This document shows, one piece after another, positions 15,990-58,785 of a stretch of DNA of 64,000 nt (positions are counted from its first letter, which is position 1; every line of letters starts with the position of its first letter). The stretch lies in contig CAWHMT010000004.1 of NCBI GenBank assembly GCA_963830455.1, forward strand, positions 114,644 to 178,643, given 5' to 3'. The notes beneath the pieces are model-generated. The model had not been told where the DNA came from. It saw only the letters and a list, made by a program, of their open reading frames with translations, and made no database searches. The DNA is from an uncultured Gemmatimonadales bacterium (GTDB lineage Bacteria; Gemmatimonadota; Gemmatimonadetes; Gemmatimonadales; GWC2-71-9). The position numbers were made by a program, and so were the translations under genes.

Positions 15990-16010
15990 GCGCGCAAATA
16001 TACTCGCCGC

Positions 16011-25087: not shown

Positions 25088-25110
25088 GGCGATATAATAG
25101 CCCACCTACA

Positions 25111-41414: not shown

Positions 41415-42848
41415 ATGACCTCTATCCCAGCCGCCCCGCAACGCGTCGAGTTCGTCAAGGCGATTTCGCGACTCGACGCCACCGCCCTCGTGGTCGGATC
41501 CATGATCGGGTCCGGCATCTTCATCGTATCTGCCGATATCCTGCGTCAGGTCCACTCCCCGGGCCTGCTGCTCACGGTTTGGCTGGTCTCGGGGGTGGTG
41601 ACGCTGCTGGGCGCGCTCACCTACGGCGAGCTCGCGGCGATGTTCCCGAAGGCCGGCGGCAACTACATCTACCTGCGCGAAGGGATTTCGCCGCTGTTCG
41701 GCTACCTCTACGGGTGGACCCTGTTCGTCGTCATCCAGACCGGGACGATCGCGGCGGTCGCTGTGGCGTTCGCGCGTTTCACCTCGGTCCTGTGGCCCGG
41801 ACTCTCACCCGACGTGTTCCTGGGCACGACGATCACGTTCCCCGACCCGATCGGGTCGATCAACGTGGGCCTCTCGCCCCAGCGGATCTTCGCGATTGCG
41901 TCGATCGCGCTGCTCACGTGGATCAACGTGCGCGGAGTACGCACCGCCGCGTTCATCCAGACGTCGCTGACGTTGATCAAGACCGCCGCGCTGGCGGCGC
42001 TGATTCTGCTGGGCCTCGCCATCGGACGAAACGCCGCGGCGATCGCAGCCAATTTCGGATCGAGTTTCTGGGCCGGCGGCGCGCTGACGCTCGCGGTCCT
42101 GCCGGTGGTGGGCGCCGCGATGGTGGGGTCGCTCTTTTCCATGGATGCCTGGAACAACGTGGGATTCGCATCCGGTGAGCTGAAGAACCCGGAGAAAGAC
42201 TTGCCGTTCGCCATGGCGGTGGGTGTGCTCACGGTGACGACGCTGTACGTGCTCGCGAACGTCGCGTACCTCAACGTCCTGCCCGCCGACGCCATCGCCA
42301 ACGCGCCCCAGGACCGCGTCGGGACCGCCGCGATGCAGGCGATGTTCGGCCCCGCCGGGCTCTACATGATGGCGATCGCGATCATGATCTCGACGTTCGG
42401 GTGCAACAACGGGCTGATCCTGTCGGGCGCGCGCGTCTATTACGCGATGGCACAGGACAACCTGTTCTTCAAGTCCGCCGCCAACCTGCATCCCACGTAC
42501 AGGACGCCGGCCCTTGCCTTGATCGTGCAGGCGATCTGGACGTGCGTGCTGTGTCTCTCGGGCACGTACGGCCAGCTCCTGAACTTCGTGATCTTCGCGG
42601 CGGTCGCGTTCTACGCGGTGACGGCGATCGGGTTGTTCCGGCTGCGTCAGAGGCGACCCGATTTGCCGCGCCCGGTGCGTGCGCCCGGGTATCCTGGGCT
42701 CCCCGCGTTGTACATCGTCCTCACCAGCCTGATCGCCATCGACCTGCTGGTGCAGGACGCGACCCGCACATACGCGATGTTGGGGCTGATCCTGGTGCTG
42801 CTCGGCGTGCCCGTGTACTACGGCTGGAGGCGGATGGCTGACTCGTAG
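41415..42848 (+). CDS. APC-superfamily amino acid permease
   Basis: 477 aa, 12 predicted TM segments. VVGSMIGSGIFIVSADI, GELAAMFPKAGGNYIYL. Confidence 0.9.
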   Translation: MTSIPAAPQRVEFVKAISRLDATALVVGSMIGSGIFIVSADILRQVHSPGLLLTVWLVSGVVTLLGALTYGELAAMFPKAGGNYIYLREGISPLFGYLYGWTLFVVIQTGTIAAVAVAFARFTSVLWPGLSPDVFLGTTITFPDPIGSINVGLSPQRIFAIASIALLTWINVRGVRTAAFIQTSLTLIKTAALAALILLGLAIGRNAAAIAANFGSSFWAGGALTLAVLPVVGAAMVGSLFSMDAWNNVGFASGELKNPEKDLPFAMAVGVLTVTTLYVLANVAYLNVLPADAIANAPQDRVGTAAMQAMFGPAGLYMMAIAIMISTFGCNNGLILSGARVYYAMAQDNLFFKSAANLHPTYRTPALALIVQAIWTCVLCLSGTYGQLLNFVIFAAVAFYAVTAIGLFRLRQRRPDLPRPVRAPGYPGLPALYIVLTSLIAIDLLVQDATRTYAMLGLILVLLGVPVYYGWRRMADS

Positions 42849-42850
42849 GC

Positions 42851-42867
42851 TTCGGGTTATATTCGGG
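42851..42867 (+). promoter_or_regulatory. TTCGGG-N5-TTCGGG box (copy 1) overlapping a TATATT -10; leaderless promoter of the Zn-ribbon ORF / radical SAM operon
   Basis: TTCGGGTTATATTCGGG. TATATT at 42858-42863 lies 7 nt before ATG 42871. Confidence 0.5.
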
Positions 42868-42870
42868 TGT

Positions 42871-42999
42871 ATGGTCGTACGCACCAAACCCCCGAGAAAA
42901 CCGCCTCAAGCTCCGCCATGCCCCGACTGCGGCGCCAAGACCACCCCGCAGTCCGGCTGCCTGGTGTGCCCTCAGTGCGGCTGGGCGCGCTGTGGCTAA
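42871..42999 (+). CDS. 42-aa Cys-rich zinc-ribbon-like micro-protein
   Basis: Hand translation (below the ORF-track size cut-off): MVVRTKPPRKPPQAPPCPDCGAKTTPQSGCLVCPQCGWARCG, stop TAA 42997-42999. CPDC...CLVCPQC...C pattern. Overlaps the next gene's GTG by 8 nt. Confidence 0.5.
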   Translation: MVVRTKPPRKPPQAPPCPDCGAKTTPQSGCLVCPQCGWARCG

Positions 43000-44089
43000 G
43001 AGAGCGGTTAGGCGGTCAGACGGTTCGACGGTTAGTGCTACCATCGAACTGCCTCTCGGCCCAACCGCTCAACCGTCTAACCGTCTAACCGTCCAAGTTC
43101 TCGACCAACGCCTCCGCGGCACGAGGTTCGTCTCACTAACTCCCCAACGCGTCCTCAACCCGCCAAGCGCGACCGGCATGGCTTACTGGTCGCTCAATCC
43201 GTACGTCGGCTGCGAATTCGGCTGCAGTTACTGCTACGCGCGCTACACGCATCGCTACGTCGTCGAGCGCGCGCATGACGCCGGCAAACTGACCGATGCC
43301 GAATTTGCGGATTACCGTGGAGCACACGGATGGGAGGCGTTCGAGAAGCGGATCTTCGTGAAGGAGCAGGTCGTCGGCGCGCTCGACGCCGATCTCAAGC
43401 GAGTGCCGCTCGGCGAAACGATCGTGATCGGGACGGCAACAGATCCGTATCAACCCGCCGAGCGCCGCTTTCGGGTGACGCGCGCGGTGCTGCAGCGCCT
43501 GGCGCGCTGTGAAGGACTGTCGTTCGGCATCATCACCAAAAGTCCACTGATCGCACGCGATGCAGACCTGCTGGTTCGGCTCCAGGAGCGCAACGAGCTT
43601 CAGGTGCACGTCTCGCTCATCACCGCCGATGCGTCACTCGCGCGCCGGCTCGAAGCGCGCTCGCCCGTCCCCGCGGCGCGGCTGCGCGGTCTGCGCAAGC
43701 TCGTCGACGCCGGGGTCAACGCGGGATTGATTGTCGCGCCCGTGCTGCCCGGCATCACCGACGCCGTCGCGCAGCTCGACGCCCTGTTTGCCGCCGCGAA
43801 GGACGCCGGTGCTCGATTCGTGCACGCGGGCCCGCTCCGGCTCTATCCCGCCATCCGCGATCGTTTCCTACCCGTGCTCGGGGAGCATTTCCCCGAACTG
43901 GTGCCCAAGTACCAGCGCGCTTATGCCGGACACGGCTATGCGCCACGCGACTATGCGAAGGCGCTGTCGCGCCGCGTCGAGCGGCTGCGGCGTAAGCACG
44001 GGTTCAGGAATGAAAGCGCGATGTACGATCGGTACCGCAGCCAGATTCCGGTGCAGGGCGAGCTGGAGCTGCGCGGCAGCCTGCCCTAG
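42992..44089 (+). CDS. SplB-like (COG1533, 'DNA repair photolyase'-type) radical SAM protein
   Basis: WSLNPYVGCEFGCSYCYAR (CxxxCxxC cluster). The conserved pre-cluster segment RGTRFVSLTPQRVLNPP lies upstream of the first ATG (43177), so GTG 42992 is the only canonical start. Confidence 0.8.
   Translation: MAKRAVRRSDGSTVSATIELPLGPTAQPSNRLTVQVLDQRLRGTRFVSLTPQRVLNPPSATGMAYWSLNPYVGCEFGCSYCYARYTHRYVVERAHDAGKLTDAEFADYRGAHGWEAFEKRIFVKEQVVGALDADLKRVPLGETIVIGTATDPYQPAERRFRVTRAVLQRLARCEGLSFGIITKSPLIARDADLLVRLQERNELQVHVSLITADASLARRLEARSPVPAARLRGLRKLVDAGVNAGLIVAPVLPGITDAVAQLDALFAAAKDAGARFVHAGPLRLYPAIRDRFLPVLGEHFPELVPKYQRAYAGHGYAPRDYAKALSRRVERLRRKHGFRNESAMYDRYRSQIPVQGELELRGSLP
43004..43092. repeat. Inverted pair of 8-nt tandem arrays (4 units each, core GACGGTT / AACCGTC)
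   Basis: Left: GCGGTTAG GCGGTCAG ACGGTTCG ACGGTTAG (43004-43035). Right: CCAACCGC TCAACCGT CTAACCGT CTAACCGT (43061-43092). 25-nt spacer. About 25 of 32 positions can pair. Confidence 0.6.
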
Positions 44090-44760
44090 TTGCGCGACAC
44101 CAGCTCGAACACGCGGGTCTGACCGCAAACGGGAGTCACGACGTCGTGCACATAGCCGCGCACAAACGCGTACGCGAGGCCCGTGGTATCGGCCTGGTCC
44201 TCGAGGACATAGCTCCAACTCAATCCGCCCACCGGCTGCAGCCGCACGCACCCGTTGTCCACGAACTTGCTGGCGAATCCACCTGCGTTGCGCGTGGTGC
44301 TCTCCGGACCGTCCGTATTGTTGAGGCGAACCGTCACCTCGCCGTAGGTCCGAACAGGAAGATCGGCCGCGGTGAGCCGTTCTGGCCCGTACACGCTCGA
44401 AGAGGCGCGCATCTCGAACGTGCGCATGTAATTCGCCGTGAGCCCAGGCGCAGTGCCGACAGTATCGAGATCCACATAGTAAATGTCGAGCTGCAGTGCC
44501 TCCAACGGGCAGATCTGTGGCTTGTCCTTCACGAGAAAGTAGGGCGCGAATGTGACCGCCGATTGATCGGCGCTGGCGCCGGGGTTGTAGACGCCCTGAG
44601 AGCAACCGGGCCTCGACACGAGCATCCGCACCATGAACGGCGTCGCTACGGGCACCTCGGCCGGCCATTCCATCCATTCGACCGTCGATGACGCGACCGT
44701 GAGGTCCGATCCGCATGCGGCGATGAGAGCGCAAACCGAAGCCAACAGCACAGGGCGCAT
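44086..44760 (-). CDS. Hypothetical lipoprotein
   Basis: Start ATG 44760: MRPVLLASVCALIAAC/GS lipobox. No recognisable domain. Confidence 0.6.
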   Translation of the reverse strand: MRPVLLASVCALIAACGSDLTVASSTVEWMEWPAEVPVATPFMVRMLVSRPGCSQGVYNPGASADQSAVTFAPYFLVKDKPQICPLEALQLDIYYVDLDTVGTAPGLTANYMRTFEMRASSSVYGPERLTAADLPVRTYGEVTVRLNNTDGPESTTRNAGGFASKFVDNGCVRLQPVGGLSWSYVLEDQADTTGLAYAFVRGYVHDVVTPVCGQTRVFELVSRN

Positions 44761-44799
44761 GGCAATCCTCGTGAATGGTGGGTTCCCCAAATACCTACC

Positions 44800-45771
44800 C
44801 TAGCGAGGCTCCCCCGCGTCACTTTCCTCCCACATCTTCACGACCGCTCTGATCGTTCCTGGTGCGTTCCCCTCCGCGCGGTTGTTCGCAAGAATGAATG
44901 CCTCGACTCGCCGCCGGTGCGCTTGCGTCACCAGACGCACGAGATCCTGGCGCAGACTCGGCAGTGGCTCCTGAACTCGATCGTACGGCTGGAACTGCTT
45001 CACGGCGTCGGCGTACCGCCGGCCCGGCTTCAAGAGCGCGCGCGCGACCGTGAAGCCGGTCGGGAAAGTCCACTTCAGGTCGAGCTGCTCGCCGATCGAT
45101 GGCATCTCCGTCCAGGAGTTGAACACGTGCGCGACGCGGTTGCGTTTCAGGACCTCGCCGTGGAGGTCGGTCATGAGCTCCGGATTTCGCAGCTCGACGG
45201 CGTAGCGAAAGTCGGTCGGCAGTTGACCGAGAAAGTCGTCCAGCTGATCGGCCCACTGTAGTGGATCGGGAAGATCCTTCCCCCGCATCGCCTGGAATTC
45301 GAACACGAAGGGCCCCGCATGATCGCGAAACACCCGACCGTACGGACCTAGCACGCCGTCCTTGAACAGCGTGGCGTTCAGGAAATCGGGATTGCGCATC
45401 CCCGCGAGCCCCGGCTGCGGCGCATCCTGCCCCAGTCGCTTCGCGGTGATGCGATCCCAGACCTTACTGACGCAGGGGAAGCCGGGCGGCAACGCATGCG
45501 CATAGGCGGCCAGCTCTTCTTCTGACGGCGGATCGTAAAACGCGCTGTCGATCCCTACGGTGCGAAACAGCGGGTAGCGCGTGTACTCCTCGAGCCGTCG
45601 CGCCGGTTGCGGACCACGATAGCGGCGATGGTAGATGTCGCCGAACCAGCCATCGTAGGTCCAAGTGGACGTCCCAAACCGGATGCTCAGCGGGATCCGC
45701 TCAGCCAGTTCGACGACTTCGCGGCTTGGTGCTGGAAGGGTCTCGGGCCCGAACAGGTCAGGTTGGCTCAT
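44800..45771 (-). CDS. DUF72 (UPF0759, YecE-like) protein
   Basis: Start ATG 45771 (MSQPDLF), 9 nt after a TATATT hexamer. IRFGTSTWTYDGWFGDIY, VGIDSAFYDPPS, FEFQ pattern typical of DUF72. Confidence 0.8.
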   Translation of the reverse strand: MSQPDLFGPETLPAPSREVVELAERIPLSIRFGTSTWTYDGWFGDIYHRRYRGPQPARRLEEYTRYPLFRTVGIDSAFYDPPSEEELAAYAHALPPGFPCVSKVWDRITAKRLGQDAPQPGLAGMRNPDFLNATLFKDGVLGPYGRVFRDHAGPFVFEFQAMRGKDLPDPLQWADQLDDFLGQLPTDFRYAVELRNPELMTDLHGEVLKRNRVAHVFNSWTEMPSIGEQLDLKWTFPTGFTVARALLKPGRRYADAVKQFQPYDRVQEPLPSLRQDLVRLVTQAHRRRVEAFILANNRAEGNAPGTIRAVVKMWEESDAGEPR

Positions 45772-45831
45772 CGAAGTCCAAATATACCAATCGATTAACT
45801 CCTTGGTGGTGAGCTTGCGACATCTACTGGT

Positions 45832-45848
45832 TTCGGGATATATTCGGG
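45832..45848 (+). promoter_or_regulatory. TTCGGG-N5-TTCGGG box (copy 2) overlapping a TATATT -10; promoter of imuB-dnaE2
   Basis: TTCGGGATATATTCGGG. TATATT at 45839-45844. 19 nt to ATG 45868. Confidence 0.5.
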
Positions 45849-45867
45849 TCCCTTTGGTGACTTGGCA

Positions 45868-47097
45868 ATGTCTCGACGTCCTACGAGCTCGCTCGCTGCC
45901 TGCGTTTGGATCCCCCTCTTCCCGCTGCGCTGTGAAGAGGCGCGTCACGGTGAGCTAGCCGGTTTTCCCACCGCCCTGCTCGCCCCCGATACCACGCGCA
46001 AACTCTGGCAGGTCTCCTCGCCGGCCCGGCACACCGGGGTGAAGCCGGGAATGACGGTCAGCCAGGCGATCGGTCTCTGTCCCACGCTGCACCTCATCGA
46101 GCCCGATCCGGTCCACTACGACGAGCAGTTCGCGCAGCTGCTGGCCGCACTGAGTGAAGTGAGCCCCATCGTGGAGGCGGCCGAGCTGGGGCTCGCGTAC
46201 GTGGGCGTCGATGGGTTGCAGGGCATTTTCGGTTCTCCGGATAAGATCATCGAAGCGATTCGGCAGAACGTCCGTCCGTCAGACCGTCCGACCGTCAGAC
46301 TGGGTTGGGGAGTTGGAAAATTCACAGCTTGGGTGGCCGCAAGCCGCGCCAAGCCGAGCGAAGCGGTCGTGGTCCCGCTGGGACACGAACGGAGTTTTCT
46401 CGCTTCCCAACCCATCGCCGTTCTTCCGCTCGATGCGGACACGCACCATCGCCTGCGCCGGCTCGGCATTCGCACGCTCGGCGCGCTCGCCGCATTGCCC
46501 GAGGCGGCGATCACGGCCCAGTTCGGCGCGACGGGAAAACGGCTGTGGCAGCTGGCCGCGGGCCGAGTCATCGAGCCCGTTCAGGGACGCGTCGCGCCGG
46601 AGCCGATCGCAGCCGCACTCTCATTCTTCTCACCGGTCGGCGAACGCGAGCTGCTCGTTCACGCCCTCGACCAGCTGATCGCGCGCGCGCTCAAACATCC
46701 GCGCCGCATCGGCTGGCGCGTGTACGCATTGCGCGTGCGCGCGGAGATCGAGGGCGGCGGCTCCTGGCTCACCGCGCATCTGTTCAAGGATCCGACCGCC
46801 GACGCGGGCCGCATCGCCGCGCCGCTCCGGATGCGACTCGAGCAGTCACCTCCCACCGGCGCCGTCGAGCGGCTGGTCCTCGAGTTCACCGGCTTCGCTC
46901 CGGGGACGACGGAGCTGCAGTTGTTCGCGCGCGATGCGCAGGCGGCCGCGCGCGCGGGACAGCAGCGCGCGCTGCGCAGCGCGGCACGCGAAATCCGGAT
47001 GCGCGTCAAGCGCACAGTGCTGTATCACATCATCGAGGTGCAGCCATGGTCGCGCCTGCCCGAGCGCCGCTACGCACTGATCGACTACGAGCCGTAA
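45868..47097 (+). CDS. imuB: ImuB, Y-family-polymerase-like subunit of the ImuB/DnaE2 mutasome
   Basis: ATG 45868 (the ORF-track TTG is 2 codons upstream). N-terminus ACVWIPLFPLRCEE lacks the DxD catalytic motif of active DinB. Y-family palm/fingers-like regions (GLAYVGVDGL, LGWGVGKFTAWVAA, LPLDADTHHRLRRLGIRTLGAL). Directly upstream of dnaE2. Confidence 0.8.
   Translation: MSRRPTSSLAACVWIPLFPLRCEEARHGELAGFPTALLAPDTTRKLWQVSSPARHTGVKPGMTVSQAIGLCPTLHLIEPDPVHYDEQFAQLLAALSEVSPIVEAAELGLAYVGVDGLQGIFGSPDKIIEAIRQNVRPSDRPTVRLGWGVGKFTAWVAASRAKPSEAVVVPLGHERSFLASQPIAVLPLDADTHHRLRRLGIRTLGALAALPEAAITAQFGATGKRLWQLAAGRVIEPVQGRVAPEPIAAALSFFSPVGERELLVHALDQLIARALKHPRRIGWRVYALRVRAEIEGGGSWLTAHLFKDPTADAGRIAAPLRMRLEQSPPTGAVERLVLEFTGFAPGTTELQLFARDAQAAARAGQQRALRSAAREIRMRVKRTVLYHIIEVQPWSRLPERRYALIDYEP
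46269..46300. repeat. 8-nt tandem repeat (4 units) inside imuB
   Basis: CGTCCGTC CGTCAGAC CGTCCGAC CGTCAGAC. CCGTCAGAC recurs exactly 16 nt apart. Reverse complement shares the GACGGT core with the 43004-43092 arrays. Confidence 0.5.
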
Positions 47098-47117
47098 ACG
47101 AGCCCCGCCGAGTTGCG

Positions 47118-47354
47118 GTGGAGGTTGATGCGGACGGTGTGCCGGTTGTACTGCGGCGGTCAAAAGACGACGGCGGCGGTCAAGAAACGACTGCGGCGGT
47201 CGTCGAGGTAGTCCTCGAATCATGGCGCGTCGATGACGAATGGTGGAGGCAGCTCATCTCACGTCGGTATTTCGCCGTGTTGCTCGAAGGAGGAACGCGA
47301 GTGGTGCTCTTCGAAGATCTAGTGAGCGGCCAATGGTACATGCAGACCGCCTGA
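47118..47354 (+). CDS. Small conserved-looking ORF between imuB and dnaE2 (resembles what I recall as the DUF6504 family)
   Basis: Hidden in the ORF track as the tail of shadow ORF 46305..47354. From GTG 47118: VEVDADGVPVVLRRSKDDGGGQETTAAVVEVVLESWRVDDEWWRQLISRRYFAVLLEGGTRVVLFEDLVSGQWYMQTA. Trp/aromatic-rich, non-shadow-like composition. Confidence 0.5.
   Translation: MEVDADGVPVVLRRSKDDGGGQETTAAVVEVVLESWRVDDEWWRQLISRRYFAVLLEGGTRVVLFEDLVSGQWYMQTA
47151..47206. repeat. 20-nt tandem array (2.8 units), inverted relative to 47352-47435
   Basis: CTGCGGCGGTCAAAAGACGA CGGCGGCGGTCAAGAAACGA CTGCGGCGGTCGTCGA. Confidence 0.7.
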
Positions 47355-47435
47355 CCGCCGCCTTTGCCTTTTGACCGCCGCCTTTGCCTTTTGACCGCCT
47401 TGACTGCCGCCTTTTCTTTTTGACCGCCGCCTTTC
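47352..47435. repeat. 20-nt tandem array (about 4 units) ending at the dnaE2 ATG
   Basis: TGACCGCCGCCTTTGCCTTT x2 (perfect copies), then TGACCGCCTTGACTGCCGCCTTTTCTTTT and TGACCGCCGCCTTTC, followed by ATG. CTTTTGACCGCCGC is the exact reverse complement of GCGGCGGTCAAAAG in the upstream array. Confidence 0.75.
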
Positions 47436-50400
47436 ATGTACGCCGAGCTCCACTGCCACTCCGCCTACTCGTTCCTCGATGGGGCCTCGCCGCCTGACGA
47501 GCTCCTCGCCGAAGCGCACCGGCTGGGCTACCCCGCCCTCGCGCTCACCGACCGCAACGGAGTCTACGGCTCGCTCGCGTTCGCGCACGCCGCGCAACCG
47601 CTCGGCATGCAGGCGATCACCGGCGCTGCAGTCACGCTGACCGACGGTGCGGAGCTCATTCTGCTCGCCGAATCGGCGGAGGGCTACGCGAACTTGTGTC
47701 GACTGCTCACCCAGGCACATCTGGGCGCCGAGCGGCTCGATCCCCGGCTGCCGCTCAGCGCGATCGAAGCACGTCATGAAGGCTTGATCATCCTGTCGGG
47801 ATCCCGACGCGACGGATTGCTGCCGCGGACGCTCGAATCCGAGGGGCTCAGCGCCGCCCGCAAGCTCGCGGATCAATGCAATGAGATGTTCGGACGCGGT
47901 CGTTTTTTCGTTGAAATCCAGAGGAATCGTGTTCGGGGGGACCTGGCGCTCAGTCGCGCGTTAATCGACGTGGCGGGAGGCTTGCAACTTGGCGTCTTAG
48001 CAACTGGAAACATCCATTATCACGCCCGGAACCGTCACCGCTTACACGACGTGATGGTCGCCATCCGCCACCGGACGACGCTGGACGGCTCCCACCGGGT
48101 CAGAAACCCGAACAGCGAATTTTACTTGCGGCCACTGGACGAAGTCGTTTCGCTGTTCGATGACTGTCCTGATGCTGTCGCCACTTCCTTGGCCATTGCC
48201 GAGCGCTGCAAGGGCTTCGACATCACCCGCGACCTCGGCTACACCTTCCCCGACTTTCGCGGGGCAGAGCGCGCGCCCGCACCGGAGGCGTTGGCCGAGT
48301 TGTGCGACGGACGCCTGCTCGAGCGCTACCCTCCTGGCTCCATTTATCACGCCCAGGCGGTGCGCCGGCTCGACGAAGAGCTGAAACTCATCGAGCATCA
48401 CAAGCTCAGCGGGTTCTTTCTCGTCTATCACGATCTGTTCGATCTCGCGCGCGAGGTCGCGGTCGACGTGCGCCGCGGTTCCCGGCGCGCCAGCGGCAAT
48501 CTGCTCCCCGGCCGGGGCCGCGGCTCCTCGGTGTCCTCCATCGTCTGCTATCTGCTCGGCCTCTCCCATATCGATCCGATCGCCAACAAGCTCTTCCTCG
48601 GCCGTTTTTTGAACGAAACGCTCGCGTCCGTCCCCGACATCGACCTCGATTTTCCTCGCGAGATCCGCGAGGAGCTGATTCGGCGTGTCTATACGCGCTA
48701 CGGCGCTGAGCACGTCGGACTCGTGTGCACGTTCCCGACGTACCGCCTGCGATCGGCGGTGCGCGAAATCGGGAAAGCGCTCGACTTGCCTTTGGGTGAG
48801 ATCGAGCTCGTGGCAAAGCTGTCGGACAGTCGGACCGACGGACTGTCGGACGAGCTGCAACATCTTCCCGGCTTCGAGGGACGCAAGGATGCGCCTCTGT
48901 GGAAAGAGCTGTGTGAGCTGGCGGCGGAGATTCGCGGACTGCCGCGTCACGTGTCGCAGCACCCCGGCGGGATGATCATCTCATCGCGCCCGCTGGTCGA
49001 GCTGGTGCCGCTCGAGCGCGCCGCGATGGAAGACCGCGTCGTGTGCCAGTGGGACAAGGACTCGTGCGACGACGCGCGCTTCATCAAGATCGACTTCCTC
49101 GCGCTCGGCATGCTGTCGCTCGTCGAGGAATGCGTCGAGCTGATCGCGCGCCACACCGGAACGCCGCCGGATCTCTCGCGCATCGATTTCGAGGACCCCG
49201 TCATCTACGACCGCATCTGCGCCGGCGATACGATCGGCCTGTTTCAAATCGAGAGCCGCGCGCAGATCCAGATGATTCGTCGCAGCAGGCCGCGCAATCT
49301 CGAAGACCTCGCGGTCGAAGTCGCGATCGTCCGACCCGGACCGATCGTCGGCGGAGCCGTGAACCCGTACGTGCGCCGGCGCGAGGAGCAACGGCGCGCG
49401 CACGCCGCCGGCCTGCCGTACGAGCCGCCCGTCGACCATCCGCTGCTCCGCGAATGTCTCACCGAAACGCTCGGCGTCATTCTCTACCAGGATCAGGTGC
49501 TGCAGGTGTGCCAGGCGCTCGCAGGATTCACGACCGGACAGTCGGAAGCGCTGCGCCGGGCAATGAGCCGGCGCCGTTCGCACGACTTGATCGCGGGCTT
49601 CTGGGAGGAATTCCGCCAGGGCGCGCTGGCGCGGGGTGTTCCCGAAGCGACCGCCGAGAAGGTGTTCGGCCATGTGACCGCATTCAGCGAGTTCGGGTTT
49701 CCCAAGTCGCACGCCGCTGCGTTCGGCCTGCTCGCCTATCAATCTGCCTGGCTCAGGCACTACCACCCGATCGAGTACTACGTCGCGCTCTTCAATAACC
49801 AGCCGATGGGCTTCTACTCGATCGATGCGCTCGGCCGCGATGCGATGCGCAACGGCATCCAGATGCGACTGCCTGATATCAATCGGAGCGATGTCTGGTG
49901 CACCGTCGAAGCCAACCAGGGTGACGTGGGGGCCCTAAGAGTTGGTTTGGGATTCGTGCGTCACTGGAGCGAAGAAACCGCGACCGCGACAGTCGCAGAG
50001 CGGGAGAAACACGGTCCATTCAAAAGCGTGGGGGACTTCATCCGCCGCGCGCCGGCCAAGCTCAAACGCACCGCCATCGAGGCGCTGATGTGGGTCGGCG
50101 GGTGTGACCGCTTCGGTCTCACCCGGCGCGAGCTGCTCTGGCAGGTCGGGCTGTGGCTGCCACCCAAAGCGTCACGCTCCGGGGACGGCCGGGGCAGGCG
50201 GCAGCTCGAATTGGCCTTGAACCACCCCCACGAGCATCTCCACTTCGGCGAACTGGCCGACCACGAGCGCCTGCTCGCCGAGTACGCTACCCTCGGCTTC
50301 TCGGCGAGCGGGCATCCTTTGTCGTTGGTACGTAAGGCTTTACCATCTGACCTGACACTGAACCAGGATTTGGACAAACTGAAGGCCGGAACACCCTGCC

Positions 50401-50732
50401 TGGTGGCCGGCCTGGTCGTCGCCCGTCAGCGGCCCCAGACCGCCAAGGGAACGGTGTTCCTGCTGGTCGAAGATGAGACCGGCATGACGAACGTGATCGT
50501 GCGGACGGATGTCTACGATCGCTATCGTGCGGCGATTCGCGGTGAGCCGTTCGTGCTCGTACGCGGCAAGCTCGCCAAGGACGATGGGACGGTAAACGTG
50601 CTGGCTGAGGAGGTGCGAGGCTTACAATGCGACATCAAATCCCCGGATCCCGTCCCCAGAGAATCCCCCGCCGCATTCAGCTTCTTACGGGCGATGCGGC
50701 GCGTCGCACCCGGCTCCAAAGACTGGGGCTGA
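47436..50732 (+). CDS. dnaE2: Error-prone DNA polymerase III alpha-like subunit DnaE2 (ImuC)
   Basis: PHP N-terminus MYAELHCHSAYSFLDGAS, GRGSSVSSIVCYLLGLSHIDP, PDIDLDF, OB-fold C-terminus. 1098 aa. Cassette position after imuB. Confidence 0.95.
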   Translation: MYAELHCHSAYSFLDGASPPDELLAEAHRLGYPALALTDRNGVYGSLAFAHAAQPLGMQAITGAAVTLTDGAELILLAESAEGYANLCRLLTQAHLGAERLDPRLPLSAIEARHEGLIILSGSRRDGLLPRTLESEGLSAARKLADQCNEMFGRGRFFVEIQRNRVRGDLALSRALIDVAGGLQLGVLATGNIHYHARNRHRLHDVMVAIRHRTTLDGSHRVRNPNSEFYLRPLDEVVSLFDDCPDAVATSLAIAERCKGFDITRDLGYTFPDFRGAERAPAPEALAELCDGRLLERYPPGSIYHAQAVRRLDEELKLIEHHKLSGFFLVYHDLFDLAREVAVDVRRGSRRASGNLLPGRGRGSSVSSIVCYLLGLSHIDPIANKLFLGRFLNETLASVPDIDLDFPREIREELIRRVYTRYGAEHVGLVCTFPTYRLRSAVREIGKALDLPLGEIELVAKLSDSRTDGLSDELQHLPGFEGRKDAPLWKELCELAAEIRGLPRHVSQHPGGMIISSRPLVELVPLERAAMEDRVVCQWDKDSCDDARFIKIDFLALGMLSLVEECVELIARHTGTPPDLSRIDFEDPVIYDRICAGDTIGLFQIESRAQIQMIRRSRPRNLEDLAVEVAIVRPGPIVGGAVNPYVRRREEQRRAHAAGLPYEPPVDHPLLRECLTETLGVILYQDQVLQVCQALAGFTTGQSEALRRAMSRRRSHDLIAGFWEEFRQGALARGVPEATAEKVFGHVTAFSEFGFPKSHAAAFGLLAYQSAWLRHYHPIEYYVALFNNQPMGFYSIDALGRDAMRNGIQMRLPDINRSDVWCTVEANQGDVGALRVGLGFVRHWSEETATATVAEREKHGPFKSVGDFIRRAPAKLKRTAIEALMWVGGCDRFGLTRRELLWQVGLWLPPKASRSGDGRGRRQLELALNHPHEHLHFGELADHERLLAEYATLGFSASGHPLSLVRKALPSDLTLNQDLDKLKAGTPCLVAGLVVARQRPQTAKGTVFLLVEDETGMTNVIVRTDVYDRYRAAIRGEPFVLVRGKLAKDDGTVNVLAEEVRGLQCDIKSPDPVPRESPAAFSFLRAMRRVAPGSKDWG

Positions 50733-51667
50733 GCCTGGTCCTGATCGCCGCCTGCGGCGGTCAGCCAGAACCCGAGCAGACGGCGCCGGCCGCCGCCCCT
50801 CCCGCGCCGGCTCCCGTTTTCCCTCGCACCCTGTACGCGTTGGACGTCAACGGCACCCGGCTCACGTATCGCCTGATCGGCGACAGTGGCGCCGCGCCGA
50901 TCGTGTTCGTGCACGGGACGCTGGGCGATTACCGTTCCTGGAGCGGTCAGGAAACGGCGTTCGCTCGAGCCTATCGCGTGCTCGTGTACAGCCGTCGCTA
51001 CCATCCACCCAATCCGCAGGTCGTCGACACCAACCAGGTGTACTCGCCCAAGGTGCATGCCGAAGACCTGGCGGCGATGCTGCTCTCGCTCGACATCGCG
51101 CCGGCTCACATCGTGGGTGCCTCGTACGGCGCGTACACCGCGCTGGCACTCGCGCGCGATCACCCCAACCTCGTGCGCTCTCTGGTGCTTGCCGAGCCAC
51201 CCATCCTGCACTTGCTGACCATGTCCGAGGCTGGGGACGCCGCGCGTCGGGCCTTTTCCATCAACGTGCTCGATGTTTCGCGCCGCGCGTTCTCCCGCGG
51301 CGATTCGGTCACCGCGTTGCGCGTGTATTACGACGGAGTGTACGGGAGGGGGCGGTTCGACGAGCTCCCACCGGCGACGCGCGCTGATGTGCTGGCGCAC
51401 GCATTCGAGATGCGACAGGAGATGCTGACGAACCGCGAACAGTACTTTCCGGCTATTTCCTGCGGCGAACTGGGCCGAGTGACGACGCCCGTGCTGCTGG
51501 TGAGGGGCGAGCGCAGCCCGCGGCTGTTTCAGCTCATCACTGACGAGCTGGCGCGCTGCCTGCAGAGCGACACCACCGTCGTGATCCCCGGCGCCGGCCA
51601 TCCACCCAACGTGGGCAACGCGGCCTACTTCAACCAGATGGTGGCTCGCTTCCTGGCATCCCACTAG
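50627..51667 (+). CDS. Alpha/beta-fold hydrolase, lipoprotein
   Basis: IVFVHGTLGDYRSW, nucleophile elbow HIVGASYGAY (GxSxG), lipobox LVLIAAC/GG. ATG 50627 overlaps dnaE2 by 106 nt. In-frame CTGs at 50723 and 50729 (CTGA with the dnaE2 stop) are alternatives. Confidence 0.75.
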   Translation: MRHQIPGSRPQRIPRRIQLLTGDAARRTRLQRLGLSLVLIAACGGQPEPEQTAPAAAPPAPAPVFPRTLYALDVNGTRLTYRLIGDSGAAPIVFVHGTLGDYRSWSGQETAFARAYRVLVYSRRYHPPNPQVVDTNQVYSPKVHAEDLAAMLLSLDIAPAHIVGASYGAYTALALARDHPNLVRSLVLAEPPILHLLTMSEAGDAARRAFSINVLDVSRRAFSRGDSVTALRVYYDGVYGRGRFDELPPATRADVLAHAFEMRQEMLTNREQYFPAISCGELGRVTTPVLLVRGERSPRLFQLITDELARCLQSDTTVVIPGAGHPPNVGNAAYFNQMVARFLASH

Positions 51668-51693
51668 TCCGTGTCGGCGGTTATGCTTTTGTT

Positions 51694-52644
51694 GTGAGAC
51701 GCTTTTGGTTGTTGACCGCCGTTCTCTTTGTTGCCGCTCCGCTCGCCGCGCAGAGCGGCAACGCCGAGCTCCTCGCCGCCGCGCGCACACACATTGCCGC
51801 GCAGCAATGGGACAGCGCTGATGCCGAGTTGTCCGAGGCTCTCGAGCTCGCCCCGTACATCATGGACAGCTCCTGGACCTACATCTGGCGCGGCGTGCTC
51901 GAATTCCAGCAGGGCCGGCAGCAACTCGCTCGCGTCAGCTTCCGGCGCGCGTTGGCACTGCACCCTGATCCGGGCGTGCGTGGACTCGATACGATCTCGA
52001 CCGGTCTCGCGAATCTGTACGATCGCGAGTTCCGCGCGCTGCGGACGTTTCGCAGCTGGGATCTTGATCAGCCCGCACGCTGGACGACTCGGCCGGAGTT
52101 CGTTTACCCCCGCGGGCTGTCGCCCCGGCGGCCGGCGGGAGAGGCGATCGTCCGGGTAATCGTCGATACGGCGGGCCGCGTCGACGACCGTAACATCGAA
52201 ATCATCGCGATTCCCGACTCAGTCTTCAGCGAGCCGTTGCGACAGCTGATGACCGAGGTTGTGTTTACGCCGGCGCGTATTGCTGGAAAGCCGGTGCGCA
52301 GCCTCCTGTATTACCGGGTCAACATCGTTCCGCCCGCACCGCGCGACCCGATCCGTCTCATCGAGCTCGCGCGGGCCGAGCTGCGAGCCGGCCGCGTCGA
52401 TGGCGCCCTTGCACACCTCGAGGCCGCGCTCGATTCGGTCAACCGAGCCACGCCCGCGATTCGCATCTATGCGGAGCTCGTGGAAGGGATGGCGTGGCAC
52501 ACCAGGGGCGATCGAAAACGGGCCGCCCATACATTCGATGCGGCCCTCGCCCATTATGAGGAACTCCGAATGCAGGGCGTGGACTTCGCGCCGTTGCTGC
52601 GCAGTCTGGCCGACTCCATCCGCTTGACAGCCCGGCGAGAATGA
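51694..52644 (+). CDS. TonB C-terminal-domain protein flanked by TPR-like helices
   Basis: Signal [52 protein letters not shown]...[13 protein letters not shown] fits the TonB_C fold. Confidence 0.6.
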
Positions 52645-52648
52645 AAGC

Positions 52649-53185
52649 ATGACAACCCAGCTCGCCACGCTCGCCGGCGGCTGCTTCTGGTGTCTCGAAG
52701 CGGTCTTCGAGCAGCTCAAAGGTGTGAAGAAGGTCGAGTCCGGCTACTCGGGTGGACACGTCCCCAACCCGAGCTATGAAGCGGTGTGCTCAGGCACGAC
52801 GGGGCACGCCGAGGTCACGCAGGTCACGTTTGCTCCCGACGTGATCTCGTTCCGCGATCTGCTCGGCGTGTTCTTCTCGATCCACGATCCCACGACGCCC
52901 GACCGCCAGGGTGGCGACGTAGGCACGCAGTACCGCTCGGCGGTCTTCTATCATGACGACGAACAGCGGCGTGTTGCGGAGGATCTCGTCCGTGAGCTCG
53001 AGGCCGAGCACGTCTTTGACGATCCGATCGTGACTAAGATCGAGCCGCTCAAGGCGTTCTATCCGGCCGAGGAGTATCACCGGGAGTACTACAGCAGGAA
53101 TCCCAACCAGGCATACTGCCGCGCTGTGATCGCGCCGAAAGTGGCGAAGCTGCGCAGCAAGTACCTCGAAAAACTGAAGGCCTAG
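52649..53185 (+). CDS. msrA: Peptide-methionine (S)-S-oxide reductase
   Basis: [11 protein letters not shown] active site, [16 protein letters not shown]. Confidence 0.95.
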
Positions 53186-56100
53186 CCCGCCGCTTTGCTC
53201 TTGCCGAGGTAGGTGCGCACGAGCGGCGCCGGCCGGCGCCGCAGCAGCGCGCCGCGCAGCATGTCGCGCTCCTCTGCCGGTACGTCGACGAGGAAGCGCT
53301 CTTTTCCTTCTGCTTCTTTCACGACGATCGGCACACCGTCACGGTAGAGGATTCTGTTGGTCGTAATCGCAGGGACGGCCTCATCGGGCGTCAGTATGCC
53401 CACGAGGTTGAGCGGATCCGCTCCACTCACGGCGATGAGCTCGTCGTCGCCCTGCTCCTTGCGTGTGCTGCGCAGCAGACCGATGGCCTCGGGCAGCGCG
53501 TACTGCTCCCCCGAGAACCCGCCGACGAACCGGCCGCCGCGGATCTCGCCGCGTGCTTCCAGCCGGCGGAACACTCGCAGGATGTCGCGCCAGGGAGCGA
53601 GCAAGGTCTCCCGCTGCACCAGCCGGCGGAACACGACGCCGTAGCGGCGCAGCAGCTGCCAGGCGATCGTCTCCGCCACTTGCTCTTCTGGAATGGCCGG
53701 CCGTGAATGCGCGCGGGCCCAGCGGCCGGCGTTCTCGACGCCGAACGGCGCAATGTGCCCGCGCCGCCGGTACCCGCCACCGAGCGGCCGCCGTCGATCC
53801 GAGGGCACAAGCAACGCCCGCAGTCCGGCAAAGCTGTCCGACGACACCAATCCCCAGGCCACCAGCTCCGCCAGCCCCTTTTCGACTTCGGTTCGGAGCA
53901 AGCCCGTCGCGTTGACGAGATCGCCGAAGAACTGCGCCCCGCGCGTGTCGAACGCGGCGAGCATCGCCTTGGCCGTGGACGAGAGCGGCAGCGTAGCCGG
54001 ATCGATCTCGGGAAGCCCGGCGCGCCAGATCTCGCCGCGGTCTCGCCGGAACAGCGCGATGGGCGTGCTCTTAACCGGCCCAACCTTTCTGTTCCGCGTT
54101 CCGCCTTCCGCGTTCCGCGTTGCCGTCAGTCGCCCCCACGCCACTTCCCCGGACAGGCACAGGCCATCCAGCCAGAGCGGGTCGTAATCGGTCAGCCGCG
54201 CCGGCAGAACCTCGGACTCCCACGCGCCGGCGGCCACTTCGTAACCGTCCAGCAGATCGAGAACCGCCGCTAGACCTTCGGGACCTTCGCCGCGCGAGCC
54301 CGTGGCCACACGCTGCCACTTGAAGAGGAAGCGCAGGAAATCGGCCGCTGCGACCGGCTCGATCTCTTTGCGAAGGCGGTCGAGCGTATAGCGATGAATG
54401 CGAGCCAGCAGCCGGCGCTCGCACCACTCGATCCCCTCGACTCCCGACGAGAACCGGCCGCGCAGCGCGAACCCCTCATGCTCGAGCCCAGCCAATGCGA
54501 TTTCGATGTCGCTCGGCGGCAGGCCGAGCGCCGCGGCGACATCGGCGGTCGTCGTTGGTCCCACGACCTCCAGCCGGCCGCGCACCAGTTCTCGAATCGC
54601 GTCTTCCCTGCTCCACGTCTTGGCGCGTTCGCGTTCGGGAGGCGTGACCACCGGCTCGACCGGAGCAGCGGGGAATGCGGCTTGCACCAGCGGCACGCGC
54701 TCGGTCGCGACCCAGAGCTTGCCGTCGAGCACCGTGGCGCGACCGGCCGCGACGAGTGTCGCGAAGTCACCGCTCCAATCCCTGGTCTTTCCGCCCTCGA
54801 CACTTGGCACCGCGCCCATGACGAGGAGAGCATCGTGCAGCTCGTCCGAATTCTCAGGATCCGGCCACGCCTGCTCCCTGACCAGGTCGATGGCGGCCTG
54901 ATCGAGCTTCCCGAACTCTTCGGCGCTCTTGACGTCCAGGCCACGACGCGTAATCACCGCGCGCGTCCGCCGCTCCTCGAGCGGCGCGTCGTCGAGGAAG
55001 GCATAGGGCCGCGCGTTCAAGACTTCGTGTGACAGCGGCGACGGCTCACTCGTGTCGCGGGCGATCATCGTGAACTGCCCCGCCTCCATCCCTTCGAGCA
55101 CCTTTTTCAAGCCCGGGAAGTCCATCGCCTCCAGCAGGCAGTCGGCGATCGTCTGGTTGACGAGCGGATGATCGGGGATCTCGCGGTCGCCAACGAGATT
55201 CTCGGGGCACGCGAGCTGATCCGGGAACACCGCTGCCACAAGGTCCTCCGCCTCCATGCGCTGCAGCGGCGTCGGCACCTTCCGGCCGCCCCGGAACCGC
55301 AGCACCGCGAGCGCGCGAGTCGCATTCCAGCGCCACCGCGTTCCAAAGACCGGGGCATCGAGCATCGCCTGCACGAGCAGATGCTCCGCCGTTGCCGGCT
55401 TGAGGTACTGGAAGACGTCGTCGAGCGGGAAGCTGTGCTGTGGCCCGAGCGACAACACGATCGCGTCCTCGGTCGCGGCCGCCTGCAGCTCGAAGTTGAA
55501 GCTGCGACAGAACCGCTTGCGCAGCGCGAGGCCCCACGCCCGGTTGATCCGGCTGCCGAACGGCGCGTGCAGGACGAGCTGCATGCCGCCCGCTTCGTCA
55601 AAGAAGCGCTCCAGCACCAGACATTGCTGCGTGGGGATCGTGCCGAGGATCTGCCGCGTGGCCGCGAGGTACTCGACGATCTGCCGCGCGCCGGCATCCG
55701 TCAGTCCGACCGTGTCGACCAGCCACGTGATGGCAGCCGGCAGATCATCGAGCCGGTCCGCGACATCCTGCCGAAGCCGTGACACTTCCTCGGACAGCTC
55801 ATTCGTGCGTCCGGGGGCTTCGCCAAGCCAGAACGGCAGCGTCGGTGGCTGCCCTTTGGCGTCGGCAACGCGAACCTGACCGGACTCGACTTTGACGATG
55901 AGATACGACGTGTTGCCCAGCTGGAAGATGTCGCCCGGGTTGCTCTCGATCGCGAAGTCTTCGTTGAGCGTGCCGACGAACGTCTCGGTTGGCTCGAGGA
56001 TCACGCGGTAGTCGCCGAGATCCGGAATGGCGCCACCGGAGGTGATGGCGGCGATGCGCGCGCCGCGACGGCCCTTGAGCTTCTTGTTGATCCCGTCGTA

Positions 56101-57504
56101 GTGGATGTGCGCGCTGCGCCGGCCGCGCCGGGTCGTGAAACCCTCCGCCAGCATCTGCACCACGTCGTCGAATTCCTTGCGAAGCAGATCCCGATACGGG
56201 TACGCCGAGCGGACCCGCTCGTAGAGCGTGTCCTCTTCCCACTCTTCGCCGGCCGCGGCCGCGACGATCTGCTGGGCAAGGATGTCGAGCGGCTTGTCGG
56301 GAATGATCAGCCGGTCGAGCCGGCCCTCGCGGGTGGCGCGCAACATGGCGGCGCACTCGATGAGCTCGTCCCGCGACAGGACGAACACCCGTCCCTTTGG
56401 AATCGCGCCGAGCCGGTGCCCCGCCCGTCCCACGCGCTGCAGCAATGTCGCGATCGATCGCGTCGACCCGACCTGGATCACGAGATCGACGCTGCCGATG
56501 TCGATGCCGAGCTCGAGCGACGCGGTGGCGACGAGGGCTTTGAGCTCGCCCTTCTTGAGACGCTCTTCGGCCTCGAAGCGTTTTTCTCGTGACAGGCTGC
56601 CGTGGTGACTGGTGACATGCTCGGCGCCAATCCGCTCCGAGAGCTGCATGGCGAGCCGCTCGGCCAGGCGCCGCGTGTTGACGAACACGAGCGTCGTCCG
56701 ATGCTGCGAGATGAGCTCGGCGATTCTGGTATTGACCTCTTCCCACACCTCGGCCGACATCACCGCCTCGAGCGGCGACGACGGAATCTCGAGCTCGAGG
56801 TCCAGGGTCCGAATGTGCCCCGCGTCCACGATCGTGGGCTGCGCGCGTCCCGTGCCGACGAGGAACTGCGCGATCTCCTCGATGGGCCGTTGTGTCGCTG
56901 ACAGACCGATGCGCTGCGGCCGCGTGCCGATCAGGGCGTCGAGCCGGGCGAGTGTCAGCGCCAGGTGGCTGCCGCGCTTGTCGCGGGCCACGGCATGGAT
57001 CTCGTCCACGATCACCACCCGCACCGACCGCAGCATCTCGCGGGCGCGCTCGGACGTGAGGATCAAGTAGAGCGATTCAGGGGTGGTGACGAGGATATGC
57101 GGCGGCTTCTTGAGCATCGCCTGCCGCTCGGACTGCGGTGTGTCGCCGGTGCGGACCAGCGTCCGCACTTCGACGTCGGGCAACCCCTGCTCCGCCATCT
57201 GCGCGCGAATCTCGGCGAGCGGCTCCGACAGGTTCTTCTGAACGTCGTTCGAGAGTGCCTTGAGCGGGGAGACGTAGACGACCTGCGTCTCGTCGCGTAA
57301 CTCGCCGTTCAGACCCTGGCGCACCAACCCGTCGATCGCCGACAGGAAAGCGGCGAACGTCTTGCCGGACCCCGTCGGCGCGGCGATCAATACATCGCCG
57401 CCCTGCCGGATTACCGGCCAGGCGCGCCGCTGAGGCTCCGTTGGCTCCGCGAATCGGTTGGCAAACCAGCGTTCGATGGCAGCATGAAAGAGAGACAGCG
57501 ACAT
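53182..57504 (-). CDS. lhr: Large ATP-dependent DEAD/DEAH helicase Lhr
   Basis: 1440 aa. [45 protein letters not shown], plus the long Lhr-type C-terminal extension. Confidence 0.9.
54091..54125. repeat. 7-nt tandem repeat (4 units plus 1 degenerate) inside lhr
   Basis: GTTCCGC GTTCCGC CTTCCGC GTTCCGC GTTGCCG on the plus strand. The coding strand reads GCGGAAC repeats and encodes [11 protein letters not shown]. Confidence 0.55.
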
Positions 57505-57508
57505 AAGG

Positions 57509-57525
57509 CCCGAAATATACCCGAA
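57509..57525 (-). promoter_or_regulatory. TTCGGG-N5-TTCGGG box (copy 3) overlapping a TATATT -10; leaderless-type promoter of lhr
   Basis: Minus strand reads TTCGGGTATATTTCGGG-CCTT-ATG. TATATT (57519-57514) lies 9 nt before the lhr ATG (57504). Confidence 0.5.
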
Positions 57526-57534
57526 ACCCGCGCC

Positions 57535-58785
57535 CTAGTGAACCTGCCGGGGTCCCGGGTCCACCGTCTTATCGGATGACCGCTCGAGCTTTTCGAAGAA
57601 CTTCTCGAGAATGGGCCATTGCAAGCCGACATCCTCGTAGCCCGCTTCTACAAGGAGCGACGTATACGCCGGGTGAAACAGGACGAAGCCCAGCATCTCC
57701 GAGGCGCCGGCGCGGTGCCCGCCGAGTGCCCGAACCGCATGGCGAACGTTGGACGGCAACAGGTGTGTCTGCCCCGCCGCCAGTTTCCCCAAGTCCTTCG
57801 AGGGATGGAGCAGTAGCAGCTCCACCGGTCGGAGGTTTTCAGGAGCCGATTTCCCTTCCGGAATGGCCGCGATCAGGTGATTGATGCGATCCAGGCGCTC
57901 GGCATCGGCTTCGAGGGCATCGAGGAATATGGCATCGAACAGCAATCCCACTGCTTCCGCGGCCGCGGGGGCATCCATCTCGCGCGGGACGACGCGCGGT
58001 ACCCGGGTCCTGCTCAAGCCGATCGCCAGGATCGCCCGGGCACCGAGGTGGAGCGCGGGCGCGAGCGGCGCCATTTGACGCACACTCCCATCCCCATAGA
58101 ACTCGTCCCCAATCCGCACCGCCGGAAACATCAACGGCAGCGCTGCGGACGCCATCACGTGATCGTGCGTGAGCTGGGTGCGCACGGCTAACCGCTGGGC
58201 GCGCTCCCACATCGGTACTTCTGCCGCTGCCTGCACGAAGGACACGGCACGTCCGGTCGTGTATGAGGTCGCGTTGATCGCGACCGCGCGCAGCCGCTGA
58301 TTGGCGATATTTGCGGTAATCCCCCGCAGCTCGCTGCTGCTGCTCAAGAAATCGCGAAGGGGCTTGGTGTCCGCCAACCCGCGGATGCCTCCTGGACCGC
58401 CACCCATCCCGATTGCGCCTTTGACCCCCATCCGCGCGAGGGAAAGGATCAGGTTGAAAAGCCTGACCTGATAGACACCTTCGGTCGTGAGGCGTGCCCA
58501 TGCCCCGCGCAGACCAGCCACCGCTTCCCTGAGCGCATCCAGGTGCGACGCGAGGTAAATCGCGTTGATCGCGCCCACCGATGTGCCGGAGATGATCGGG
58601 AATGCAAGACCCGGAAGGCGCTCCGCGAGCCCCGCGAGCACGCCGACCTGGTACGCCCCCCGCGCGCCGCCGCCGCCCAGCACCAGCGCGAGGTGGGATG
58701 AGTATTTCCACACCCCTGAGGGTCGCTCGTCCGGCCTGGTGAGGTCGATCGGCTTTGCAGAGGGGATGTGGCGAATGCCACTCAT
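57535..58785 (-). CDS. Patatin-like phospholipase
   Basis: LVLGGGGARGAYQVGVL (oxyanion GGGxRG), GTSVGA (GxSxG), YGDGS (DG catalytic Asp). Confidence 0.85.
   Translation of the reverse strand: MSGIRHIPSAKPIDLTRPDERPSGVWKYSSHLALVLGGGGARGAYQVGVLAGLAERLPGLAFPIISGTSVGAINAIYLASHLDALREAVAGLRGAWARLTTEGVYQVRLFNLILSLARMGVKGAIGMGGGPGGIRGLADTKPLRDFLSSSSELRGITANIANQRLRAVAINATSYTTGRAVSFVQAAAEVPMWERAQRLAVRTQLTHDHVMASAALPLMFPAVRIGDEFYGDGSVRQMAPLAPALHLGARAILAIGLSRTRVPRVVPREMDAPAAAEAVGLLFDAIFLDALEADAERLDRINHLIAAIPEGKSAPENLRPVELLLLHPSKDLGKLAAGQTHLLPSNVRHAVRALGGHRAGASEMLGFVLFHPAYTSLLVEAGYEDVGLQWPILEKFFEKLERSSDKTVDPGPRQVH

Follow-up and report, generated by a model that had tools for sequence, protein, structure and literature searches.

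A TTCGG(G/T) direct repeat with 11-bp phasing as the probable LexA-binding SOS operator of Gemmatimonadota

Introduction

By 2021, 17 LexA-binding motifs had been reported (PMC8565304). Precedents for direct repeats come from Alphaproteobacteria, Acidobacterium and Balneolaeota (PMC7739468; PMC8565304). The alphaproteobacterial motif is GTTC-N7-GTTC (PMC8565304). The Balneolaeota motif, TTACACATATTTTWTACATA, is a non-palindromic direct repeat validated by EMSA; its discovery started from lexA promoters and was followed by comparative genomics (PMC7739468). SOS control has been reported for SplB-type radical SAM proteins, helicases and dinB-like/dnaE operons (PMC7739468; PMC8565304).

Gemmatimonadota are abundant in soils, and their DNA-damage response has no description in the literature covered. 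For the terms Gemmatimonadota, Gemmatimonadetes and Gemmatimonas, no LexA or SOS box was found in the full text of papers available without subscription. Here, a box of two TTCGGG hexamers upstream of an imuB-dnaE2 cassette is described, together with its occurrence in related genomes and its relation to the known motifs.

The box in the 64-kb window

The window is the whole stretch of DNA analysed, 64 kb in length. A sequence-only reading had noticed the hexamer TTCGGG twice, 11 bp apart, at 45832-45848, where the window reads TTCGGGATATATTCGGG. It had named just two further copies of this arrangement, at 42851-42867 and, on the minus strand, at 57509-57525. Both statements are correct. The exact pattern TTCGGGNNNNNTTCGGG (TTCGGG-N5-TTCGGG) yields three matches in the window when both strands are counted, compared with none in 100 dinucleotide-preserving shuffles. 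With up to two mismatches, 11 matches are obtained versus 9.7 expected by chance, which leaves the exact paired form as the only one above chance level. A lone TTCGGG occurs often in the window (31 and 25 copies on the two strands, 56 in total); the signal is therefore the pairing at an 11-bp period. The shorter form TTCGG-N6-TTCGG, with at most one mismatch, matches eight times in the window, and the combination of an intergenic position with an A/T spacer occurs in the three reported boxes only.

The two hexamers were further said to bracket an A/T pentamer that creates a TATATT -10 hexamer. This is true at all three boxes. The spacers, TTATA, ATATA and TATAT, consist of A and T only, and TATATT arises from the spacer completed by the start of the second hexamer. 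All -35 and -10 calls in the window are consensus matches, and the promoters are predicted ones. The putative operator boxes and the associated promoter elements are:

42851..42867, + strand, operator box 1, TTCGGGTTATATTCGGG (pattern match), with the -10 TATATT at 42858-42863
45815..45820, + strand, -35 hexamer TTGCGA of the imuB promoter (consensus scan), 18-nt spacer to TATATT
45832..45848, + strand, operator box 2, TTCGGGATATATTCGGG (pattern match), with the -10 TATATT at 45839-45844
57509..57525, - strand, operator box 3, TTCGGGTATATTTCGGG (pattern match), with the -10 TATATT at 57519-57514
57542-57537, - strand, -35 hexamer TTCACT of the lhr promoter (consensus scan), 17-nt spacer to TATATT

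For the box-1 promoter, no -35 was recognisable in the consensus scan. Box 1 is separated by 3 nt from the ATG of its first gene, a Zn-ribbon ORF, box 2 by 19 nt from the imuB start codon, and box 3 by 4 nt from the lhr ATG. With the ATG 3 nt past box 1, the transcript of this unit is predicted to be leaderless or nearly so, and boxes 1 and 3 are placed on the predicted promoters of leaderless or nearly leaderless genes. Promoters in the window organism look leaderless: TATATT is followed after 7-9 nt by a start codon, and a Shine-Dalgarno sequence is missing. Examples are located at 45771-45786 (-), 15989-16004 (-), 57504-57519 (-) and 42858-42873 (+). Neither lexA nor recA is encoded within the window.

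Genes behind the window boxes

Each box had been claimed to sit immediately 5' of a repair-type unit. The domains of the encoded proteins, i.e. radical SAM, ImuB together with DnaE2, and Lhr, agree with this. The box-1 unit requires one refinement, as a conserved Zn-ribbon ORF is located between the box and the radical SAM gene. The genes are:

42871..42999, + strand, Zn-ribbon micro-ORF of 42 aa (CPDC...CLVCPQCGWARCG), first gene of the box-1 unit, overlapping the radical SAM start
42992..44089, + strand, radical SAM protein of the PA0069 / Rv2578c (SplB-like) type, PF04055
45868..47097, + strand, imuB, Y-family-like translesion factor, PF00817 (IMS domain) with weak DinB-family matches
47436..50732, + strand, dnaE2, error-prone DNA polymerase III alpha homologue, NF004225 'error-prone DNA polymerase', 928 bits
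53182..57504, - strand, lhr, large helicase-related protein of 1440 aa with DEAD, Helicase_C, DEAD_assoc and Lhr winged-helix (WH) domains

The radical SAM protein matched NF038135 (6.9e-61) and NF033668 (2e-53), both under the curated cut-offs. Box 1 precedes the Zn-ribbon/radical SAM unit also in six other loci (L050, L051, L061, L077, L095 and L106). In the window and in these six loci, the Zn-ribbon micro-protein has 42-56 aa and carries CPxC...CxxC..CGWxxCG at the C-terminus. Cys, Pro, Gly and Trp columns were invariant in an alignment of seven loci, and a Pfam search with the ORF gave no significant family. The micro-protein is a candidate SOS-induced small protein.

Box 3 and the Lhr N-terminus recur together in locus L160 and on at least 11 metagenome contigs. 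The latter are of high GC content and were obtained in a metagenome contig scan with the second of two search patterns; they have the exact box-3 form in front of the Lhr N-terminus.

The window cassette has no imuA. In its lineage, an ImuA-like (RecA-fold) gene is present elsewhere behind a box of its own (L048, L118, L122, L086), and more distant lineages keep imuA-imuB-dnaE2 as a single unit. A unit divergent from imuB consists of a DUF72 gene and, behind it, an ORF of 234 aa without family match (44086-45771, minus strand), and this synteny with imuB is maintained in many relatives. The DUF72 unit probably lies outside the regulon, because its promoter has no box.

Conservation at imuB, imuA and other genes

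A protein search identified relatives of ImuB exclusively in Gemmatimonadota, mostly in Gemmatimonadales MAGs, with up to 90% identity, which assigns the window to a Gemmatimonadales bacterium. The identical ImuB protein is also encoded on two ENA metagenome contigs. Phylogenetic footprinting, named earlier as a check on the box, was positive: the box is unchanged at imuB in 28 related Gemmatimonadales genomes while its flanks vary. In detail, cTTGCG-N~15-TTCGGGATATATTCGGGTCCC is invariant in 28/28 promoters of cassettes that begin with imuB; the sequence on either side has diverged or been exchanged entirely. ImuB identity across these loci ranges from 90% down to ~62%. Just 3' of the imuB box, TCCC(C/T)TTGG (45849-45860 in the window; L001-L042) is conserved almost like the box. 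It is absent from other box-bearing promoters and may represent an imuB-specific leader or TSS feature.

In 13 more distant cassettes (L027-L038 and L041; ImuB identity 46-62%), imuA is located directly upstream of imuB in 12. All 12 imuA-imuB cassettes have the box upstream of imuA, in the form TTCGGk-kTATA-TTCGG. These 12 imuA promoters contain an inverted pair, CCGAA-N6-CCGAA, 9-11 nt past the direct pair. The arrangement of a direct pair and, after 8-11 nt, an inverted pair (-> -> <- <-) was observed in L027-L038 and L041 (about 2550-2800), in L109 (4533-4572) and in L099, L073, L078 and L136. At imuA, the inverted pair covers the first codons of the gene (M-x-E-x-x-P-K). In L109, a Longimicrobiales locus, the four-half-site unit is placed between divergent lhr and dnaE2 genes.

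Two patterns narrower than the general IUPAC box, TTCGGGWWWWWTTCGGG, were used for scans. A collection scan with TTCGGGWWATWTTCGGG, covering one genome per species, revealed at least 120 matches; about 33 of those listed belong to Gemmatimonadota, including Longimicrobiales. Among the Gemmatimonadota matches listed, the spacer is nearly always ATATA, TTATA or TAATA, and the box is intergenic. The genes directly behind it, again among the matches listed, are imuB (8), Zn-ribbon/radical SAM (9), ImuA-like (4) and recA (2), and further dnaE2 (L099 and L109), lexA, lhr and a gene for a SWIM protein. In the matches listed from other phyla, the spacers are random, AAATT being one example, and the box is located within coding sequence. 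The metagenome scan additionally detected a UvrD/Rep-family helicase with an ATG 1 nt after the box (L446 465-2571, L415).

A small SWIM zinc-finger protein is a recurrent box-bearing gene outside the window (L092 1858-2250, L381). The Gemmatimonadota-type imuB or radical SAM promoter, cTTGCG...TTCGGGATATATTCGGG, was also encountered on short MAG contigs assigned to Acidimicrobiia (L104) and Nitrospira (L135) and on an unidentified one (L121). These are probably mis-binned contigs.

The lexA and recA promoters

Enrichment at lexA and recA had likewise been named as a check. It was found: the box is present at 80/80 lexA and 14/14 recA promoters of Gemmatimonadota and almost absent in controls. 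The 80 lexA loci were collected through the similarity of their proteins, independently of the motif, and TTCGG-N6-TTCGG is located on the gene strand at most 120 nt upstream of each gene. The lexA upstream regions contain 154 boxes in 10.4 kb, versus none in the remaining 525 kb of the same loci. Half-sites are spaced by 11 bp in the 154 paired cases. Four half-sites are present at 66 of the 80 promoters; the spacing is 11 bp inside a pair and 14-17 bp from one pair to the next. The two pairs enclose the -10 (TAGATT or TACATT), and a conserved -35, TTGCG, is found shortly upstream. In the lexA boxes, the spacers contain G/C and are not A/T-rich. No other conserved candidate operator was found at these 80 promoters.

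Owing to the strong conservation of RecA, most loci from the similarity search for recA belong to other phyla. The Gemmatimonadota sample is small (14 loci), and 65 loci from other phyla served as negative controls. A box was counted with at most one mismatch, within 250 nt upstream and on either strand. The controls had a box in 3/65 cases, compared with all of the Gemmatimonadota loci, where 10 of the 14 boxes have one mismatch and some are on the strand opposite to recA.

Boxes at both imuB and lexA occur together within several MAGs, for example DATMZX01 (L003 and L197), whose ImuB is 89% identical to that of the window, and DATJKA01 (L013/L061 and L190). Sister MAGs with ImuB proteins 89-90% identical to the window protein have lexA with boxes. 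A canonical self-cleaving-type LexA is present in sister MAGs of the window organism (L197, L183, L184). The LexA of L103 matched TIGR00498 with 214.8 bits (cut-off 111) and comprises LexA_DNA_bind (PF01726) and Peptidase_S24 (PF00717). The motifs AAGEP, GQSM and VKKF align to E. coli LexA, with the Ala-Gly site, the Ser and the Lys present. In the alignment, the recognition helix reads SLATVHEHL versus SPNAAEEHL in E. coli, a difference that fits a changed specificity.

Operator and core promoter

As predicted from these sequences, the operator is a direct repeat phased at 11 bp, TTCGG(G/T)-N5-TTCGG(G/T). The half-site frequency matrices were conditioned on exact TTCGG. The A/T pentamer was considered as a part of the operator and rejected, as the lexA boxes have G/C-containing spacers; for the same reason, the pentamer is regarded as a -10 laid over the operator, inside which TATATT lies at all three window sites. 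The comparison promoters of the earlier reading (45781-45786 at DUF72, 15999-16004 and 25093-25098) were confirmed to have such a -10 but no hexamers. Generic promoter sequence was rejected as an explanation, since other TATATT promoters have no hexamers. The behaviour of the box is that of an operator and not that of a core promoter element, because the register of the -10 varies by gene, the box takes either orientation at recA, and ordinary promoters are devoid of it.

Interpretation of the box

The box is most likely the LexA-binding SOS operator of Gemmatimonadota. This conclusion is based on autoregulation logic and regulon content: an SOS-core gene set is located behind the box, the densest half-site array is at lexA, and a rival site is missing there. 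The gene set, with lexA, recA, imuA/imuB/dnaE2, SplB-type radical SAM proteins and helicases, matches the SOS core that recurs across phyla (PMC8565304; PMC7739468). The first proposal of an undescribed SOS-like operator is supported by the conservation at 28 imuB, 80/80 lexA and 14/14 recA promoters; LexA as the binder, repression by binding and induction by damage are presumed.

A dimer of the canonical LexA of the phylum would bind the two TTCGG(G/T) half-sites. Their starts are 11 bp apart, one helical turn, so that both would be exposed on one face of the DNA. A flexible or asymmetric arrangement of the dimer on the tandem, non-palindromic half-sites is assumed. Because the -10 is within the box and the start codon or transcription start only a few bases off, a bound repressor would cover -10 and +1, blocking RNA polymerase at the Zn-ribbon/radical SAM unit, imuB-dnaE2 and lhr. 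DNA damage would lead to RecA filaments and these to LexA self-cleavage. This would relieve the repression of the three window units and, elsewhere in the genome, of lexA, recA, imuA and the UvrD-like helicase.

It is unlikely that the TTCGG array is read by a non-LexA regulator, or by LexA in an unusual higher-order mode, in control of the damage regulon as a whole, with lexA among its genes. In the latter case, four half-sites would be occupied by two dimers; the four-half-site layouts are -> -> (-10) -> -> at lexA and, both at imuA and between the divergent lhr and dnaE2 genes, -> -> <- <-. If true, either reading would constitute a new mechanism for an SOS-type network that reads tandem, not palindromic, sites. 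There is very little probability that the hexamers belong to a specialised core promoter or serve an activator recruiting RNA polymerase, comparable to the PafBC sigma adaptor beside the -10. The pairs at lexA flank the -10, with 14-17 bp between them, some recA genes and the region downstream of imuA promoters have the box on the other strand, and other leaderless TATATT promoters in the window have no hexamers. Both imuB and lexA have a conserved -35 of conventional type (TTGCG), whereas the fixed -10 register at the three window boxes and the missing -35 at box 1 would suit such a site.

A phasing of 10-11 bp between direct repeats is typical for the sites of winged-helix response regulators, and in mycobacteria Lhr and an Rv2578c-like radical SAM protein are within the LexA-independent PafBC response. 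Both facts would be in line with an operator for another damage-responsive factor of the DdrO/XRE, WYL/PafBC or response-regulator-like type that also controls lexA and recA. This is quite improbable in view of the lexA promoter, which has the densest array (four half-sites in 66/80) and no alternative operator, and of the near-universal autoregulation of LexA. Among the ~45 Gemmatimonadota-type matches listed, lexA is the only regulator gene behind a box. RDRM and PafBC motifs are absent from these promoters, and direct-repeat LexA boxes have an EMSA-proven precedent (PMC7739468). Chance similarity, a small dispersed repeat or a 5'-leader RNA element has next to no probability and is effectively refuted by the shuffles, the imuB footprint, lexA and recA. 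The motif is short, and a single TTCGGG is common in a GC-rich genome; against this stand 0 matches in 100 shuffles and phylum-wide conservation at functionally linked genes. A dispersed repeat or MITE was rejected because the flanks of the boxes are unrelated. An RNA element was rejected as well: an Rfam search of 42000-58000 gave no family match, and boxes 1 and 3 are upstream of leaderless gene starts and would not be transcribed, since the start codons follow 3-4 nt past them.

With LexA as the most likely reader of the box, the finding, a probable LexA motif and regulon for an unstudied phylum, is solid but would hardly surprise specialists in its concept. The first predicted regulon comprises lexA, recA, imuA, imuB-dnaE2, lhr, the UvrD-like helicase, the PA0069/Rv2578c-like radical SAM protein with its Zn-ribbon partner, and the SWIM protein. 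The Gemmatimonadota box would be one more entry beside the 17 motifs. As another apparent direct-repeat LexA site, it bears on the evolution of LexA specificity and dimer geometry. The box lets SOS-regulated genes be annotated in thousands of soil MAGs, and Gemmatimonas aurantiaca is a cultured species in which the prediction is directly testable.

Comparison with known motifs

According to the sequence-only reading, the box fits no known LexA palindrome, RDRM or mycobacterial motif. The tested patterns, of which those for the RDRM and PafBC consensus are approximate, indeed do not fit. The families rejected are the alphaproteobacterial, E. coli, Gram-positive, cyanobacterial, Verrucomicrobia, Bdellovibrio, Geobacter, Xanthomonas and Leptospira types, RDRM and PafBC. 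The E. coli-type CTGT-N8-ACAG was found in 0/80 lexA and 0/28 imuB promoters, and the Gram-positive GAAC-N4-GTTC in 1/80 and 0/28, respectively. Approximate patterns for the Deinococcus RDRM and the mycobacterial PafBC RecA-NDp motif each matched 0/80 lexA promoters, 0/28 imuB promoters and 0/3 window boxes.

The Cheo half-site of Gram-positive bacteria and Actinobacteria, GTTCG, overlaps TTCGG by four bases, and the recognition helix of Gemmatimonadota LexA presumably resembles the Gram-positive type T-V-H-x-H-L. The Cheo box GAAC-N4-GTTC is, however, a palindrome with ~8 bp between the half-site centres.

The mycobacterial PafBC/RecA-NDp motif is located beside or over the -10 of DNA-repair genes, which are often leaderless, and lhr and a radical SAM gene are among its targets. 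The Gemmatimonadota box shares with it the position at the -10, the leaderless transcripts, and lhr and radical SAM genes as targets. In contrast, the mycobacterial motif is an activator site that takes the place of the -35, and TGTCRGTG-N8-TANNNT is absent here. In Gemmatimonadota, the box occurs at lexA and recA, and there is a -35.

The Balneolaeota motif is unrelated in sequence and is validated by EMSA, whereas the present box is a predicted LexA site. Both are direct repeats from little-studied phyla, discovered via lexA promoters and comparative genomics. The Balneolaeota regulon likewise contains translesion polymerases, a helicase and a radical SAM protein (PMC7739468).

The geometry of the box had been equated with that of the alphaproteobacterial GTTC-N7-GTTC. 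This holds for the 11-bp phasing and the TTC core; the half-site sequence differs, being TTCGG(G/T) here. GTTC-N7-GTTC is present at 8/80 lexA, 0/28 imuB and 0/3 window sites, and it fits only as a subset of the Gemmatimonadota box. The lexA-derived boxes have no preference for G 5' of TTC, which places the box outside the alphaproteobacterial motif family. The helix SLATVHEHL is presumably also unlike the alphaproteobacterial recognition helix. Besides the direct-repeat layout with its 11-bp period and TTC core, the two boxes have in common that they occur at lexA, recA and imuA-imuB-dnaE2 promoters and that their presumed binder is a canonical self-cleaving LexA.
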